Shown here piece by piece: positions 4,280 through 64,000 of a stretch of 64,000 nt of DNA. The position numbers and the translations under genes are program-made. Under the pieces are notes generated by a model that was not told the DNA's origin, searched no databases, and worked only from the letters and a program-made list of their open reading frames with translations. The stretch's first letter is position 1; each line of letters starts with the position of its first letter. The stretch lies in IMG/VR virus record IMGVR_UViG_3300025154_000056, positions 40,341-104,340 of that record, one strand, 5' to 3'. The stretch comes from a virus. Its lineage: Duplodnaviria > Caudoviricetes.

Positions 4280-5704
4280 ATGAGTTCGATTATTGACAGC
4301 TTGAGAGAACGAATCAAGGATGAGCAATACGCACAACGTGCGTTCGGACTCGCAATCTCCGATGAGAACGTTCAACGTGCCCTCGCAGAGATCACTAACA
4401 ATCACTTGATTGTTACAATTTCTAGCGGCTCAGGGGCGAAAGCTAGAGGCATCGACTTCGACCTATCGGACGCGAGATACGACACTATTGGTAAGCTGTA
4501 CCAGGCTGTGTCGCGCATGGAGGGGTACCAGGCGAACCTGGACGAAGACGCCTCCATGTCCCACCCATCAATTGACTTGGAGCACTTCGGCCCCATGGAC
4601 ATTGCTGGCGTAGGGCTAGATATGAAACACCACGTCTTCTCCGATGCTGAGTTGGAGAGGTACCTTGGGTTTGCGGTCAAGCGTCACAACCCAGGGCTGA
4701 CCATGGATACCTTACCCGATGGTGAGATAATCTTAGTCATCTATTTGGCATCAGCGGATATATGCAGGATCCAAGCCCACGACGCAACCAAACGTAAGGG
4801 AATGGATTCGGAGATATTCTACCTGCTTGAGATGGCGAACAATTTCGACAGGGCGTACCAGAAGGATGCGAAGCGCCTCAGTCGAGCCATCGTCTCTCCG
4901 AAGGAGTCTCCTCGCAACGACATGCGAGAGGGTGACGTAGTACTAGGTAGTCTGATGCGTAGGAGCATGCGTACCGGGCTCATCTCTCCTATGTCGCAGA
5001 ACCTGCCCCCTAGTCCAGCAGAGTTGTTTGACCCCAATGATGAGGACGTGGAAGACACGTTCGTTCGAGTTAGGTGGATGCGCAATAGAGACCTGGACTA
5101 TTACAGCTTTGAGCTTTGGATGGACTCTAGGCCAGATGTTGCGCGTACTCGGGAAGCGCTGCTGGCGGCTGAGCAAACATACTCAGCGCATGGGGACGCG
5201 CAGATGCTGAGGCAGTCCACGAGCAAGCTGGTGTACAGGTCTATGGGGCCCAACACCCGTGGGTCTGCTCAATTCACACCTACTGCATTCATTGGTGGCA
5301 ACGGCAGCCAGGTAACAAACTACGTTGTTGATAGTCTGGAGCCCGACACTACGTACTATTTTAGGGCGTACATATTCGACCTGAACGATGAGTCTGTGGC
5401 TTCGAACGTAGCGGAGTTCAGGACTAAGTCACTGCGTACTCGATTCACTGAGACTGGTACCGTAGTTCCTGTGCACGGCGTGGCTACTGATTTGGTATTA
5501 GTCAACTTCGATTCGACCTTCGGGCCAATTACTGCTAGCCACCAATTGAAGATGGGAGAAAAGACTCTTGCCTTTACGGTTATTACTCCCACGCAGGCTC
5601 AAATTACTGTACCTTCTTTTTTGAACAAGGGTCTGAAAGACCTTGTCGTCATATCGCCCAACAGCTTGATCAACATCCGTCGTAACATTTTCGAGGTGAG
5701 GTAA
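4280..5704 (+). CDS. head-tail adaptor/neck protein with C-terminal FN3 and Ig-like (IPT/TIG) domains
   Basis: Neck position; FSDAELERYL adaptor-like motif; FN3 signature VRVRW...YVVDSLEPDTTYYFRAY. Confidence 0.65.
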   Translation: MSSIIDSLRERIKDEQYAQRAFGLAISDENVQRALAEITNNHLIVTISSGSGAKARGIDFDLSDARYDTIGKLYQAVSRMEGYQANLDEDASMSHPSIDLEHFGPMDIAGVGLDMKHHVFSDAELERYLGFAVKRHNPGLTMDTLPDGEIILVIYLASADICRIQAHDATKRKGMDSEIFYLLEMANNFDRAYQKDAKRLSRAIVSPKESPRNDMREGDVVLGSLMRRSMRTGLISPMSQNLPPSPAELFDPNDEDVEDTFVRVRWMRNRDLDYYSFELWMDSRPDVARTREALLAAEQTYSAHGDAQMLRQSTSKLVYRSMGPNTRGSAQFTPTAFIGGNGSQVTNYVVDSLEPDTTYYFRAYIFDLNDESVASNVAEFRTKSLRTRFTETGTVVPVHGVATDLVLVNFDSTFGPITASHQLKMGEKTLAFTVITPTQAQITVPSFLNKGLKDLVVISPNSLINIRRNIFEVR

Positions 5705-16847: not shown

Positions 16848-18644
16848 ATGGCGCGAAACATCTGCATGGGTCCGTGTGATCTTAGCGTCTCTACATATAA
16901 GAGCTTTACGTTTCCTGTTCCAGGATTCCCTCCAGGTTACGGAGTGAAGGCACCAGCGTCGATGTCGTTTGAGGCTGACTGTGAAGGCTGTAGCCTCAGT
17001 GCGAACTTCCTCCTAATGATTCAGCCTCTAATGCTGAGCCTGGGCCTGCCCCTGTGTTTGCTTACCTGCCTCCTCGCTATGGTAGGCGTGGCACAGAAGC
17101 TAGTGGGTCAGGATGGGGCGCACGCTGTACTCAACGCTGACCCGACGCTGAAGATCACCCTGGACCCGAGTCTGCAGATACCTTTCTTCAATTTCGAGGC
17201 CATTGCTAAGGACTATACAGACGACCCGTCCTTGATCAAGCGCATCGTCAAGGTCCTGGTAGATTGTGCATGTCTATTTGACCTGCTTCTTCCATTCAAG
17301 TGGATCTGCATGATCAAAGCGTTGGTTATGGTGGTAATTGCTCTAGTCAATTGTGTCATCAGCTTACTCAACCACCTGATTACGCTGGAGCTGCGACTGT
17401 CTTTGATGCTGTCTGACCCAGACATTAGCATCCAAAAGTCTGCAGTGTGTTTGGCAGGATTCATTCAAGTAGAGACTTCCAATTTGGCAGTCAAGCTGGA
17501 CGTCATCACGCAGCTATTCAAGCTAGTGGACTTGGTGTTCAAGATTCTGACTCCCTTAGGCGTCCCTACACCCCCGGGTCTGGCTGACGTGCAGATAGCA
17601 ATAGATGCCATCGTCAATATGATTGGTAACAACCCAGTCACCGCCACACTACTGACTGCGTTGCAGCAACTCAAAGGCGCATTAGAGGTTCTCTATTGTG
17701 CCTTGAATGCTATGTCGTTTGGGCTATGCCCAATGGAGTTGGATTGTAGTGCTTGTGGTGCGGCTAACACCTCTGGCTTCCAAGCGTCGTGGGATGGGGC
17801 ATTCCCTGTGGCGTTTGCGGACGGAGAGTTCTTCGAGGCTGAGGTAGATGGAGCCCCTGTAGGTACCGTTACCATCCTAGGGCAGAGGGCTACAGCAATC
17901 GGTGCTGGTGCGACGTACGTCATCCCGCCCACCTCAGTGACCGTGGGTCTGCAGCCAGCAGGCAATACATTTGAGGTTGATTCGGTAGTGGGCTGGTCCG
18001 TGGGTGATGCTGTTGTGGTGAAGGACGGCGTCTATGTCCTGCGCACCACCATTGCATCTACCTCCCTGTTGCCTGATACCATCGAGCTGAATGCGGTTAC
18101 TACGCAAGCGCTGTCCAATGGGGCACAGTTTATCAAACCAGCCAGGCTATACATCGACATCAGCACTCCTAGCGGAACCAATACGTACAGCACTACGTTT
18201 GACGTTGAGAGTAATCAGGTCGAGTTCATCAACGCAATCAACAGCAACCTAATTGGTGCTGTGGCTCAGGCAGAGGGGGCAGAGATTCGCATTTCTACAG
18301 AAGGGTACGGCTCTGCCTACGCTGGGCTAGTGCATGGTACGGCTAACCCTGTACCGTCTAGTGCTAATGCTACCATGGCTATTGGATACTTCGGGGCAGG
18401 AGACTTCACGCTGATAAACCCAGGCCCCAATACTGTAGCAGATCTGAACTCTGTGCTGTCGTCAGAAATAAAGGCGTTGTTTGACGCAGCTTTCCCAGGG
18501 TCTACTGTTACAGATAACACTAGCAGCATTGTGTGGGCCTCGGATTCGACTGGGTCAGGATCCTGTGTCCGTATGGTGACTGGCTCTACTGGTACAAATA
18601 AGATTGGTTTTGATTGGGCCTCACATTGTGGCACCCAATGCTAA
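16848..18644 (+). CDS. virion protein: hydrophobic Cys-rich N-terminal half plus domains paralogous to the sheath insert
   Basis: Between spike and gp25; C-terminal half aligns by eye with sheath residues ~123-325. Confidence 0.7.
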   Translation: MARNICMGPCDLSVSTYKSFTFPVPGFPPGYGVKAPASMSFEADCEGCSLSANFLLMIQPLMLSLGLPLCLLTCLLAMVGVAQKLVGQDGAHAVLNADPTLKITLDPSLQIPFFNFEAIAKDYTDDPSLIKRIVKVLVDCACLFDLLLPFKWICMIKALVMVVIALVNCVISLLNHLITLELRLSLMLSDPDISIQKSAVCLAGFIQVETSNLAVKLDVITQLFKLVDLVFKILTPLGVPTPPGLADVQIAIDAIVNMIGNNPVTATLLTALQQLKGALEVLYCALNAMSFGLCPMELDCSACGAANTSGFQASWDGAFPVAFADGEFFEAEVDGAPVGTVTILGQRATAIGAGATYVIPPTSVTVGLQPAGNTFEVDSVVGWSVGDAVVVKDGVYVLRTTIASTSLLPDTIELNAVTTQALSNGAQFIKPARLYIDISTPSGTNTYSTTFDVESNQVEFINAINSNLIGAVAQAEGAEIRISTEGYGSAYAGLVHGTANPVPSSANATMAIGYFGAGDFTLINPGPNTVADLNSVLSSEIKALFDAAFPGSTVTDNTSSIVWASDSTGSGSCVRMVTGSTGTNKIGFDWASHCGTQC

Positions 18645-27880: not shown

Positions 27881-28261
27881 ATGGCGGATGACCAACGCAC
27901 ATGCAGGTACTGCGGAAAGCTAGCCACACACAGTTCCGTAGTACCACTCAAATTCTGGGTGAGCAAAGAGCCCGGCAAGAGGGGTAAGTACACAAATATA
28001 GGTGTTCAATACTGCTGCACTAAATGCAACTTCTCTGGCAGTTGGATGCCCCTAAAGGAAAAGAAGCATGTCAGATTCAGAATCAAAGCTGGAAGAAGTA
28101 GTGGCGTCAACGGAGGGATCCACTTCCGTTATCCTCCTGCAAAAAGAACAGGTGCAAAACGTCGTAATTCGGCTGCTACAGAGCCGCAAGTTTATCGTTT
28201 TGCTCTTGTTGTGCCTCACAGGCGGGGTGCTCGTAGGCATGGGCAAGGTGTCGTGGCCTGA
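27881..28261 (+). CDS. hypothetical Zn-binding protein (CxxC...CxxC)
   Basis: SD GGAG; CRYC and CTKC; C-terminal part overlaps the holin ORF. Confidence 0.5.
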   Translation: MADDQRTCRYCGKLATHSSVVPLKFWVSKEPGKRGKYTNIGVQYCCTKCNFSGSWMPLKEKKHVRFRIKAGRSSGVNGGIHFRYPPAKRTGAKRRNSAATEPQVYRFALVVPHRRGARRHGQGVVA

Positions 28262-28346
28262 GTTCTTGGACGCGCTCAAGTGGATTGGTGGCACGTTCAT
28301 CGCCTCGGTTGCGCTTGAAGATACAGCCCGTTTGCGTTCTGTTTGA
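28068..28346 (+). CDS. putative holin
   Basis: SRKF followed by two hydrophobic helices, ending ALED; last gene of the structural operon. Confidence 0.65.
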   Translation: MSDSESKLEEVVASTEGSTSVILLQKEQVQNVVIRLLQSRKFIVLLLLCLTGGVLVGMGKVSWPEFLDALKWIGGTFIASVALEDTARLRSV

Positions 28347-28372
28347 CAACTTCCTACGACCTGGCGTACACT
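28343..28372 (+). promoter_or_regulatory. sigma70-type promoter (TTGACA-18-TACACT)
   Basis: Perfect -35 hexamer and near-consensus -10 pointing into a noncoding region. Confidence 0.55.
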
Positions 28373-28377
28373 CTACT

Positions 28378-28515
28378 TCGTTGTTAGTTGGGTCGCGGAG
28401 AAGTCGGCATCTTCGCCTCCACCTAACCCTCTCCTCCCTTCTCTGTTGTTGGTCGTGTGTGGTTGGTCATCCCGTTAGAAAACCCCTAGGGCACGCTGTG
28501 GCTCTAGGGGTTTTC
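28378..28515 (+). ncRNA. candidate small regulatory RNA (~135 nt)
   Basis: Bounded by promoter and terminator; 5' stem GUUGGGU/ACCUAAC and GCGGAG/CUUCGC; CU/GU-rich unpaired core complementary to the early-gene RBS. Confidence 0.5.
28478..28515. terminator. bidirectional intrinsic terminator
   Basis: GAAAACCCCTAG...CTAGGGGTTTTC 12-bp perfect inverted repeat with A and T tracts. Confidence 0.8.
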
Positions 28516-28531
28516 GCTATTTGAGCCTCGC

Positions 28532-28581
28532 TTGACACCCAACTCGGACGGACTTACTCTAGACCGACCGGTCCGAGTTGG
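28532..28581 (+). promoter_or_regulatory. sigma70-type promoter of the replication operon with overlapping inverted-repeat operator
   Basis: TTGACA-17-TACTCT; CCAACTCGGAC (28539-28549) and GTCCGAGTTGG (28571-28581) flank the -10 element. Confidence 0.65.
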
Positions 28582-28594
28582 AGGCGGACGACCA

Positions 28595-29959
28595 ATGAAA
28601 TTCAGGCTACTCAAAAAGCGCAGACGTAACCCTGCGTACTTCATCAGGAAAACGCGAGAGGCAGACGCCCTCGTCGCAGAGAAGCTGGTGTTCACGGACC
28701 CCATGTACTTTGCGAAGATGAATCGTGGGTTGCCTATTGGTGACGAAGACGGTGTGATCAAGCTGTACCGCGAGGAGGAAGGTCTGTACGTAATTCCTCG
28801 CAATCTATACGCAGACACCAACTGGTATCAGCCCACAGGTATGTCTCACGAGAGCAAGATTACCTTACGCGACTACCAACAGAAGGCATCAGAGAGCCTC
28901 ATGGCTAACCGAGGAGATAAGATCCTGTGTTTGGCATGCGGTAAAGGCAAAACAGTCGTTGCTATTGATGCAGCTTGCCGTGGTGCTCGGCTACCTATGC
29001 TGGTGGTAGTGCACACCAAAGCTCTGTTGTCACAGTGGGTCGAGCGCATCAAGGAACATGCTGGTGTCTCTGAAGATGACATAGGTATGCTCCACAGAGA
29101 TAGAGCTGATTGGTATGGGAAGAAGTTCGTGGTGGCTATGTTGCACACGCTGGTTCAGCGTCAAGACACATACCCAACTGAGCTGTATGACTATTTCAAC
29201 TTGGTTGTATTTGACGAATGTCACAGATTAGCAGCCCACTGGTTTTCTGATGTGTGCTGGCAGTTTGGGTGCGAGCGTTGGGGACTCACCGCTACTCCAG
29301 AGAGAGATGATAAGCTTGAATTTGTGTTCAAGTATCATCTAGGACCTATCTGCCACACAGACACGGTTCAGGATCTGCGACCTACGATGTACTTCGTGCA
29401 CACAGGCATAGACGACAAGGACGAGCGCGTGGTCCTACGTAAGCAGAGAGATGGTAGAGTATCTCTTCCGCTACTGGTGACTTCTCTAGCTAACCACAGT
29501 GGTCGCAACGCAATCATCAACTCGTTTGTGCGTCGAGCCATCAACAAAGACAGAACTGCTTTAGTGTTGGGCGAACGGGTAGCAAGCCTCCAGTACTTGA
29601 TGGGCACCCTGCAGCACGAATCAAAGTCGTTGTTCTTGGGTGGTATGAAGGAGGCAGAAGCATCAGAAGCCCTGAAGGCGCAAGTGGTGTACGCGACGCA
29701 GCAGATGGCTAAGGAAGGGCTCGACAGGCCCGCATTCGACACGCTCATTATCGCGCACCCATTCACAGGCAAGGGTAGGCTGAAGCAGACTGGCGGGCGC
29801 ATCCTCAGGTCCAGAGAAGGCAAACAACACCCAGTCATTTTGGTACTGCAGGATGACCTAGGAGTCAGTAAGGCCATGTGCAGCATCATGCGTCGGCACG
29901 CAGAGTCGTTCAGGTGGAGAGTCAAGCACGTGGACTCGAACGGTAAGAGGGTTCGATGA
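28595..29959 (+). CDS. SF2 DEAD/DEAH-box helicase (UvsW/XPB-like)
   Basis: LRDYQ, LACGKGKT, VFDECH, GLTATPER, EGLDRP, QTGGRILR; start placed at ATG 28595 after GGAGG. Confidence 0.92.
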   Translation: MKFRLLKKRRRNPAYFIRKTREADALVAEKLVFTDPMYFAKMNRGLPIGDEDGVIKLYREEEGLYVIPRNLYADTNWYQPTGMSHESKITLRDYQQKASESLMANRGDKILCLACGKGKTVVAIDAACRGARLPMLVVVHTKALLSQWVERIKEHAGVSEDDIGMLHRDRADWYGKKFVVAMLHTLVQRQDTYPTELYDYFNLVVFDECHRLAAHWFSDVCWQFGCERWGLTATPERDDKLEFVFKYHLGPICHTDTVQDLRPTMYFVHTGIDDKDERVVLRKQRDGRVSLPLLVTSLANHSGRNAIINSFVRRAINKDRTALVLGERVASLQYLMGTLQHESKSLFLGGMKEAEASEALKAQVVYATQQMAKEGLDRPAFDTLIIAHPFTGKGRLKQTGGRILRSREGKQHPVILVLQDDLGVSKAMCSIMRRHAESFRWRVKHVDSNGKRVR

Positions 29960-30378: not shown

Positions 30379-30698
30379 TGCGGACACTGATATTCGCGTA
30401 CACACTCAGGATCGCTGACCAGCGTCTGAAGTACGATGTAGTCCCAGGAATTCCAGGTGTGGAAGACATGACCGTGATGGACCTTACGCTGTGGTTTCAA
30501 CGGGTTGTGCCACGCCTCAAGGAAAGTATTCCCAAGGCAGTTGTTGGGGTAGACTCTAACGACATGAATCTGGTGGAGACTCGATTCGTCGAGTCAGTCA
30601 GTCAGACAATTGATAAGTCCTTCTCTCCGGCTCGTGTAGTGGTTATGCGAGCAGAGGCTGTGGCGAACATGATCAACAACGGAGTTACTGACCCATGA
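30378..30698 (+). CDS. hypothetical protein
   Basis: TAATG coupling; SD GGAGG. Confidence 0.65.
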   Translation: MRTLIFAYTLRIADQRLKYDVVPGIPGVEDMTVMDLTLWFQRVVPRLKESIPKAVVGVDSNDMNLVETRFVESVSQTIDKSFSPARVVVMRAEAVANMINNGVTDP

Positions 30699-57990: not shown

Positions 57991-58328
57991 TGAATAGGCT
58001 GACGCACACTTCAATTCTTTTGGTCCTTCTTGCCACTCTCGTAGGCTGTTCGCCCTCCAGTGACCCAGCACCTGTGATCAGACCAGCATCGGGCGCCGAG
58101 CAGTGCGGGGAGGCGTGCAAGAAGATGGAGACGTACCCCAACAACGAAGGCGGTCTAGGGTGTGTACCTCCCATCATGGTGCCAGACGATGACGGAGGAC
58201 TCGTCGAGCTGGAGTGCAAGGATTGGTGTGAGTACCAGCACAGCCAGGGATACGGATGGGATGCAGAGTGCATCATCAATATAGCAGTCACTTGCGATGA
58301 GGTAGAGGAAATCTGCCAAGGACAATAA
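57990..58328 (+). CDS. Cys-rich lipoprotein
   Basis: Signal peptide with lipobox LVGC; CxxxC repeats. Confidence 0.7.
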   Translation: MNRLTHTSILLVLLATLVGCSPSSDPAPVIRPASGAEQCGEACKKMETYPNNEGGLGCVPPIMVPDDDGGLVELECKDWCEYQHSQGYGWDAECIINIAVTCDEVEEICQGQ

Positions 58329-58350
58329 CGACAGACGACAAGAGGAGGAT

Positions 58351-59428: not shown

Positions 59429-59951
59429 AGCCTATCAGAAGATCCAGGACGAGCAGGTACCGTGGGTGAAGCACAACTTCCCCGGTCGACCGCCTCATCA
59501 GCCTCTCATGGGCATTACAGAAGAGCTTGGTGAATTCGTGGATGCGTTGGAGGTATATGCGCACCAAGACATGATGGACGCGCTAGCAGATATCATGATC
59601 TACTTCTGCGACTATGCTTCGGCGTGCGAAATCAAAGTATCTGACTTGTACATAGAGTCTCTCAATTACTTTGAGAACCGGCTCCAGTCCATCAGCATCC
59701 TAGGTAAGCTGCACCACCATAGGCTCAAGCTCGACCAAGGCATTCGCAAGAATGAAGACCACGCAGCCATGACGTTTGAGTACATGGCAAAGCTATTTGC
59801 GTGGTGCCACGTAACCTGCCTACGGAAGACCGGAAAGCCATTGGTCCTAGTCACTACCGACGTGTGGGAAAACATCGTCAAGAAGCGCGACTGGCAGGCA
59901 AACAAGGATAGTGGAGGTGCTGCGGCTGATGTACCCGCTGAGAGAACCTAG
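59406..59951 (+). CDS. MazG-like nucleotide pyrophosphohydrolase
   Basis: W..HNF, GITEELGE, DALADIMIY, VWENIVKKRDW. Confidence 0.8.
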   Translation: MKTQETAEAYQKIQDEQVPWVKHNFPGRPPHQPLMGITEELGEFVDALEVYAHQDMMDALADIMIYFCDYASACEIKVSDLYIESLNYFENRLQSISILGKLHHHRLKLDQGIRKNEDHAAMTFEYMAKLFAWCHVTCLRKTGKPLVLVTTDVWENIVKKRDWQANKDSGGAAADVPAERT

Positions 59952-60062
59952 ATCAAACGAACCGCTAGACCTAGCTGTCTTCTCAATAATGATTGCTTTA
60001 TTGTGTCTAGTGCTGGCGATTCGAGGATGCGTAGTAGACCACACAGCAACGGAGGATAAACA

Positions 60063-60344
60063 GTGCCACCAAAACCATTGATAGTAAGCAATGCAGAGAT
60101 GTACACAGAAGTACTCGGGCAGTCTCCCAACTTCTCTCCAGGTAGGTCTTCTGTGTACCTCACTCTTCAGGGCGACAACGGGTTCAGTCTACGTGTGGAG
60201 CTTGTACACCACCACGACTACAATAGAATCATTAGGTATATGGATTCAGGACGGCGAGAGCAAGAGGTGGTGTGTACCAACCCATGCACCTGCAGGAGTG
60301 GAATCTTCTTTGATAAGTGCGATGATCCTAGGTGGCGACGATGA
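60063..60344 (+). CDS. hypothetical early protein
   Basis: Preceded by the CAGCAACGGAGGA RBS. Confidence 0.55.
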   Translation: MPPKPLIVSNAEMYTEVLGQSPNFSPGRSSVYLTLQGDNGFSLRVELVHHHDYNRIIRYMDSGRREQEVVCTNPCTCRSGIFFDKCDDPRWRR

Positions 60345-60553: not shown

Positions 60554-61166
60554 GACGCATAAGTTCTGGGTACGAGATCCGAAACCTTACCACCCGCACC
60601 CACGGATCCTTGTGGGCTTCCAGGTGGAAGACACTGATGAAGGTCTGCTTATCAGATGGGCTAGCGCCACCCTGGCACCCCAAGACAGGTTTGACCGGAA
60701 GGAGGCACACCGGCAGGTTGATGCATTGCTCGGAACTCCCTTTGCAAAGACGAAGCGGCTTCCTGAAGTCACTGTCGAGAGCATGCGGGACCCTGTTATG
60801 TACAGGAGGGTAAGAGTACTGATCTTGGAAGCAGAATGGGCTGGGGCTATTTGGGCTTCGCTCAAGAGAATGACATGTGCTTGTGCGGTAATTGGTAGAC
60901 CGCTAACCAGCCTGGAACGAAGGCACTGGTGTGAGGCAATGCGCAAGCCAGCCCTCAACCTGTACCTGGTGCGTGACTTCTCACACCAGGATCAGAGGCG
61001 ACCTAGTGTGCTGATAGCTGCTAGGAATGCGGAAGCAGCCAGACTTACTGGTCACATGTGGTTGCGTGGCCCCGACCTGACTGTAGTGTCGATAGGGAAG
61101 GCGGATCAATCTGTGAAGCCTGGTGTTCTGCTGGACAGCATAGTGGGTGATTCCTCTCGCCCTTGA
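60543..61166 (+). CDS. hypothetical protein
   Basis: 207-aa ORF; PQDRFDRKEA motif. Confidence 0.6.
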   Translation: MENKTHKFWVRDPKPYHPHPRILVGFQVEDTDEGLLIRWASATLAPQDRFDRKEAHRQVDALLGTPFAKTKRLPEVTVESMRDPVMYRRVRVLILEAEWAGAIWASLKRMTCACAVIGRPLTSLERRHWCEAMRKPALNLYLVRDFSHQDQRRPSVLIAARNAEAARLTGHMWLRGPDLTVVSIGKADQSVKPGVLLDSIVGDSSRP

Positions 61167-61191
61167 CTCTCGCAAAAACAACACTTACAAT
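61163..61191 (+). promoter_or_regulatory. sigma70-type promoter (TTGACT-17-TACAAT)
   Basis: Near-consensus hexamers with 17-bp spacing. Confidence 0.7.
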
Positions 61192-61204
61192 TGAAGTTAC
61201 CAGT

Positions 61205-61225
61205 AGCCCCTTCACGGGGCTTTTT
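61205..61225 (+). terminator. intrinsic terminator
   Basis: AGCCCC-TTCAC-GGGGCT followed by a T run. Confidence 0.75.
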
Positions 61226-61344
61226 GGGTGTCTACCATGTGGAGACTAACTAGGAGGTGCATCATGCGCCGTACCAGCTAAAACCTGGTGCAAGCCACGT
61301 AGCCTTAGCGGTTCGTGGCTTGTGGGCGTAGGAGGACCAAAGAC

Positions 61345-62634: not shown

Positions 62635-62665
62635 CAATGAACAGCAATTCAACACGGAGGATTTC

Positions 62666-63145: not shown

Positions 63146-63183
63146 AATAGACTTAGGTTCTATTCACCAACAACGGAGGAACA
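63132..63183 (+). promoter_or_regulatory. early promoter plus shared RBS cassette (TTGACA...CAACAACGGAGGAACA)
   Basis: Same architecture repeated at 63620-63670. Confidence 0.6.
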
Positions 63184-63619: not shown

Positions 63620-63670
63620 TTGACAATTCAAACTGCGTAATTAGACTTGCAACACAACAACGGAGGAACA
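63620..63670 (+). promoter_or_regulatory. early promoter plus shared RBS cassette (TTGACA-16-TAGACT...CAACAACGGAGGAACA)
   Basis: 16-nt RBS block identical to 63168-63183. Confidence 0.6.
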
Positions 63671-63864: not shown

Positions 63865-64000
63865 TGAAAGCCGTGGGCGACGGCTACGGCGACGGCTACG
63901 GCAACGGCGACGGCTACGGCGACGGCAACGGCGACGGCTACGGCGACGGCTACGGCAACGGCGACGGCTACGGCGACGGCAACGGCTACGGCTACGGCTA
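63864..64000 (+). CDS. Gly-rich G[DN]GYG repeat protein (partial)
   Basis: MKAVGDGYGDGYGNGDGYGDGNG...; tandem GGCGAC/GGCTAC/GGCAAC hexamers running off the window. Confidence 0.7.
   Translation, partial: MKAVGDGYGDGYGNGDGYGDGNGDGYGDGYGNGDGYGDGNGYGYG

Follow-up and report, generated by a model that had tools for sequence, protein, structure and literature searches.

The stretch of DNA analysed here, hereafter the window, comprises 64,000 nucleotides and corresponds to bases 40341-104340 of a 104,340-bp phage record. Genes for a major head protein, a tail sheath, a DNA polymerase, DnaB and a ligase found in the record identify the phage as a myovirus. Its plus strand carries the long ORFs and all 20 TTGAC-type (consensus) promoter matches of the genome. 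The start and end of the record (genome 1-80 and window 63880-64000) lie in the same Gly-Tyr/Asp/Asn codon repeat, so the record is probably a circle opened within this repeat. Throughout, 'early' designates promoter-headed, short-leader cassettes grouped around the record ends, a class defined by sequence layout. Several early promoters (genome 734, 1820, 2867 and 6522; window 63132 and 63620) contain or adjoin a TAGACT box at their -10 element. At window 61163-61226, a consensus promoter is followed ∼15 nt later by a terminator-like hairpin and U run, an arrangement that may yield a very short transcript or act as an attenuator.

The feature of interest lies within a 248-bp gap. Upstream is a small hydrophobic ORF (28068-28346), which we read as holin-like and for which a family search returned no match. 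Downstream is an SF2 helicase (28595-29959, plus strand, phrog_16, E 1.5e-46), the first gene of the replication module. The nearest homologues of this helicase are only 41-49% identical, which marks the phage as one without a close relative; searches with the single protein sequence found no match. In genome_contigs the helicase had no match either, which leaves no clue to the host.

A preliminary description of this DNA had placed a noncoding unit with its own promoter in the gap, and the sequence signals bear this out; every coordinate and sequence it gave agrees with the genome on direct inspection. The predicted sigma70-type promoter (TTGACA-18-TACACT, 28343-28372, plus strand) overlaps the stop codon of the holin-like ORF with its -35 element, and it is one of five promoter matches in the genome that use an upstream TGA stop within the -35. 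A scoring matrix built from 15 further promoters of the genome gives it 17.8 bits, which is rank 11 in the whole genome; the best of the other sites not used for training reaches 13.8, 4 bits less. This places the predicted promoter in the class of the phage's real promoters. The candidate sRNA that would follow spans ∼140 nt (28378-28522, plus strand, ends predicted) and contains no ORF. Its predicted fold (MFE -48.6, z -2.05) is matched by 3 of 200 shuffles. This fold comprises a 5' stem-loop of 7 bp including one G-U pair (28395-28416, plus strand), a partly unpaired anti-Shine-Dalgarno CUCCUCC (28431-28437, plus strand), a second, partly hidden CCUCC (28416-28420) and a GU/CU-rich pairing region (28439-28463, plus strand) delimited by fold and duplex predictions, whose seed, 28439-28453, is predicted to be mostly unpaired, as had been proposed. 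The unit ends in an intrinsic-terminator-like hairpin (28478-28522, plus strand), predicted to be steadier on the plus than on the minus strand (-28.4 vs -22.9 kcal/mol, a difference of 5.5). The hairpin, described earlier as a strong terminator, has 15-nt arms (28478-28492/28501-28515), but its U tract is short, and a simple scanner made no call.

No Rfam family matched the unit by E-value and gathering score. A hit to NsiR1 (E 0.43) was rejected as weak and confined to the terminator. An origin of replication at the unit was likewise rejected, as the sequence is not AT-rich and iterons are absent. Cuckoo/CcsR sRNAs consist of repeated hairpins with CCUCCUCCC in each loop; membership in this group was rejected, since the unit has a single near-motif outside any repeated hairpin loop and Rfam is without a match.

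All four duplexes originally proposed between the core and early mRNAs are present as described. On the predicted mRNA 5' ends, predicted duplex energies range from -7.5 to -17 kcal/mol. The strongest of the four covers the first ∼15 nt of the early mRNA of ORF 63188, including its Shine-Dalgarno (SD) sequence (63166-63180, plus strand); this duplex has 13 Watson-Crick and 2 G-U pairs, begins at about the predicted +1 and is predicted at -16.0 to -16.5 kcal/mol. At ORF 63672, the leader and SD (63655-63667, plus strand) would form 11 Watson-Crick and 2 G-U pairs (-13.0), and at ORF 60063 the predicted target (leader and SD, 60038-60056, plus strand, -10.6) offers either 10 Watson-Crick and 3 G-U pairs from 60044 or an alternative pairing at 60038 with 8 Watson-Crick and no G-U pairs. 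The leader of ORF 62666 (62650-62661, plus strand) is a weak predicted target, with one bulge, -7.8 and rank 27 of 145 starts. Pairing extends to starts of other kinds: the longest helix, 18 bp (15 Watson-Crick and 3 G-U), falls at the non-early ORF 30695 (30667-30684, plus strand), and the top score among the 145 starts, -19.6, at the non-cassette ORF 58354 (58328-58349, plus strand). In its 3' part, the candidate sRNA also holds an 11-bp perfect complement (28462-28472) to 27886-27896, 565 nt away, the first codons of a cysteine-rich ORF (27881-28261) upstream of the unit. A cis-antisense RNA of the sar or OOP type was rejected, the targets being on the same strand and 32-35 kb or more away.

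The strength of this complementarity was assessed on eight promoter-headed, CA-rich early leaders that lie outside the window and were unseen when the preliminary description was made. These held-out leaders are paralogues of the ones already seen, and a match to them reflects a family motif, not independent targets. Interactions were predicted with a model built along the lines of IntaRNA, which takes its energies from ViennaRNA, requires a 7-bp seed, allows no more than 25 nt and charges the opening energy of both partners. The expectation that early ribosome-binding sites (RBSs) outrank controls holds at the group level when accessibility is counted, with held-out early starts at a mean of -11.0 kcal/mol vs -4.3 elsewhere (p=6e-5). 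It does not hold for raw duplex energy without accessibility, for which the eight held-out starts resemble other starts (p=0.21), for the longest helix, which is not longer at early than at other starts (p=0.31), or for the best 30 sites genome-wide. Many of these 30 sites lie in coding DNA and just two are early starts (1.0 in shuffles; 18 of 100 shuffles reach two), which leaves unsupported the proposal that targets are limited to early genes.

Because open leaders favour any query, nulls were also run on the query side. Against the held-out leaders, the core ranks 2nd among 1,014 non-redundant plus-strand sequence windows (-10.2 kcal/mol) and 2nd among the 101 intergenic ones, where the top two reach -13.1 and -10.2 and the third only -5.1. 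The observed value is attained by 2 of 300 dinucleotide and 0 of 300 mononucleotide shuffles of the core, and by 0 of 200 shuffles in which the SD was kept and only the leader bases ahead of it were permuted; the order of bases therefore counts on both sides. Complementarity of the core to the early RBS family thus goes beyond composition and includes the eight unseen leaders, but several non-early sites pair equally well. Taken as a sequence, the unit is a real-looking sRNA gene with predicted family-level complementarity above chance.

The claim that a single RNA performs this function is not supported, because a closer mirror of the early leaders lies elsewhere in the genome. Genome 5091-5205 (L092, G000), which the window does not include, belongs to the 3' UTR of an orphan early gene (4377-5090) and is the rank 1 binder of the early leaders among the same 1,014 plus-strand windows. 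It consists of two tandem 9-nt perfect leader complements within an unpaired stretch, followed by a 22-bp hairpin (z -4.85) whose G-U pairs favour the plus strand (-45.7 vs -29.5). It beats 300 of 300 shuffles and has eight early starts in its top 30, a number reached by 1 of 100 shuffles. By predicted pairing, it is a better anti-leader than the 28378-28522 unit. All three seeds in the genome place a U opposite one SD position, where seven leaders have G and five have A. Such a U would suit RNA pairing, since a pairing RNA can read either base; it is weak evidence, because C-to-U differences are also the commonest mutations. A third, short core match (11 nt identical) occurs upstream of an early promoter (L092:8985-9005); it is predicted to be folded and reaches only about -5.

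The best explanation of the unit, which we hold with slightly less than even confidence, is a GcvB-like multi-target sRNA that would act against the RBSs of the phage's own early cassette mRNAs and damp their expression. Host RNA polymerase would transcribe an RNA of ∼140 nt from 28378 to the terminator, and the flanking stems are predicted to keep the GU/CU-rich core single-stranded. The core would then pair with the short, unstructured CA-rich leader and GGAG SD common to ∼12 early cassette mRNAs, each with its own promoter, and to a few middle genes. Such pairing in vivo may mask the SD and the ACA enhancer and stop 30S loading as GcvB does, so that the early set would be damped and early gene output limited; the closer mirror at genome 5091-5205 probably acts alongside. 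The 28343 promoter belongs to the host-polymerase class that also serves the early and middle genes, so late action of the RNA is unsupported. A late-operon read-through RNA would also include the candidate sRNA.

Three known systems provide points of comparison. In enterobacteria, an unstructured GU-rich region of GcvB pairs with CA-rich, ACA-containing elements in or beside many RBSs (PMC3879156). The candidate shares with GcvB an unstructured GU-rich region set against CA-rich RBS elements and a 3' terminator. Unlike GcvB, it is phage-encoded, would be aimed at the phage's own leaders, and matches GcvB neither in sequence nor by the Rfam covariance model. The c4 antisense RNA of phages P1 and P7, likewise encoded by a phage, is trans-acting and targets the RBS region of a phage mRNA (PMC12197685). 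However, c4 has one target operon, loop-borne seeds and a place in a temperate immunity circuit, whereas around a dozen unlinked transcripts are proposed here, and the Rfam C4 covariance model did not match the unit. The proposed outcome is most similar to that of the T4 endoribonuclease RegB, which silences early mRNAs as a class via their common GGAG SD (PMC3014915), but RegB is a protein nuclease that needs S1, whereas here the reader would be an RNA. A literature search, incomplete in coverage, found no phage sRNA that targets the phage's own early leaders as a family.

A rather unlikely alternative accepts a real base-pairing sRNA but places its main targets elsewhere, in host mRNAs with CA-rich leaders or in middle or lysis-region genes of the phage (ORF 27881, the helicase, ORF 30695 or ORF 58354). 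Non-early starts hold ranks 1, 2, 4 and 5 among the 145 starts, the generic anti-SD motifs would suit any host message, and in addition to the 11-bp match at the start of ORF 27881, two segments of the sRNA match the helicase start region. Yet, taken class by class, it is the early leaders that stand out, an 11-mer match is expected by chance about once per 104 kb, and the helicase matches are in the wrong order for a single duplex.

An unlikely origin as a neutral spacer or scar would make the unit the degenerate remnant of an early leader copied in inverse orientation, lodged between the late-operon stop and its terminator and without a regulatory role. Among the sampled relatives, the unit is found only in this genome: in most of the distant ones, the gap holds only a terminator and the helicase promoter, with no such insert, and the cassette array itself is absent from G001-G005, the genomes with the closest helicases. 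When the viral and metagenome contigs of IMG/VR and JGI were scanned for exact 20-mers, no homologue of the unit was detected; this lack of a homologue, and with it of covariation, counts against the sRNA reading. The reverse complement of the unit can be loosely aligned to the leaders of genome genes 9078 and 4377, ordinary sense-strand CA-rich sequence in phage G006 includes 13 nt that match the core, and several phages with repeated AACGGAGG have no inverted copy. A scar nevertheless leaves unexplained why a single unit should combine an unpaired core with a 5' stem and a promoter that is still intact. Inverted promoter parts did not accompany the copy, and a second, independent mirror exists, with a hairpin z of -4.85.

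It is quite improbable that the RNA works in another mode, either as a protein sponge (S1-, Hfq- or CsrA-type) or as a cis element tuning late-operon read-through into the helicase operon. Consistent with such modes, the single strand is pyrimidine-rich and the unit sits at the junction of the late and replication modules, where read-through RNA would hide the helicase SD. The helicase operon has a separate promoter (28532-28581, plus strand) with an 11-bp inverted repeat (28539-28549/28571-28581) that spans the promoter spacer and the SD. This repeat would hide the SD on read-through RNA only, not on RNA from the operon's own promoter. T4 leader stem-loops work comparably, and a similar repeat is also present in L003. 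A distant relative has a tiny unit of promoter, unpaired anti-SD seed and terminator in the same place, after its last late gene and ahead of its helicase promoter (L258:9816-9912 = L001:2816-2912). The predicted fold, however, includes no antiterminator pairing, the plus strand has no GGA loops, and the order-specific complementarity would be left unexplained. Finally, a minus-strand leader and SD for a peptide of 8-12 codons is exceedingly unlikely: the minus strand does read CA-rich and then GGAGG 5 nt ahead of an ATG, but its best nearby promoter scores 5.4 bits, against 17.8 for the one at 28343, the genome has its 20 consensus promoters exclusively on the plus strand, and the hairpin has plus polarity and would stop minus-strand read-in too.

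Returning to the anti-RBS sRNA, we surveyed inverted leader copies in comparison phages that were found through their leader motif and are unrelated to this phage. Same-strand, terminator-linked copies occur in three unrelated phages (G006:C1:46085-46140; L329:9880-9930; G029 reversed 17800-17905). In G006, which has ∼20 cassettes, one 11-nt same-strand inverted copy lies between an early stop codon and a terminator (0.006 expected per strand). In G029, with five cassettes, an intergenic 8-nt inverted copy lies ∼20 nt ahead of a terminator (0.78 expected anywhere), and in G066, with eight, the terminator that follows the final cassette has the inverted copy as its loop. No exact inverted copy was found in G060, G062, G065 and G067, and opposite-strand copies in G064, G063, G068 and G061 were rejected as RBSs of other genes or coding DNA. 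The pooled terminator-zone count is 6 vs a permutation mean of 1.5 (0 of 139), with the zone set post hoc after two cases and the 6 including three discovery hits and one stem-arm false positive; the enrichment is suggestive only.

These cases raise the tentative idea, less probable in our view than the reading of the unit itself, that unrelated phages with promoter-plus-shared-leader cassettes may repeatedly have evolved mirror RNAs, with their own promoter, in a 3' UTR or in a terminator loop, that would pair with all members of the set and so silence them. Such RNAs would be the equivalent of T4 RegB at the RNA level, and this phage would have two. Little is known of what sRNAs do in lytic phages (PMC8244752), and the class-wide early shut-off that we found described is the protein-based one of T4 RegB. 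A multi-target RNA acting on its own leader family would add a new layer to infection timing and would account for the strong likeness among the early leaders.

The same idea, if true, would account for a lone inverted motif in mycobacteriophages. In cluster K, the Start-Associated Sequence (SAS) is a repeated, RBS-overlapping motif ahead of non-structural genes, with one inverted copy in K1 (PMC3203893); whether an RNA or a protein binds it was left open in 2011 and was still unverified in 2025 (PMC3203893; PMC12699233). Both the motif and the host differ from those considered here. The mirror-RNA idea bears on whether an RNA reads the SAS motifs, and cultured phages on M. smegmatis allow a direct test. 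A conserved, structured intergenic unit (L248:31683-32067, Anaya 59682-60066; z -4.0) is present in 182 mycobacteriophage records, and in phage Anaya the inverted SAS is the 10-nt loop of one of its hairpins. This loop has changed in Ekdilam and Krueger and is gone from Yuna, Nibb and Pharb; in Mdavu and Curiosium, as in Anaya, the inverted SAS is again a loop.
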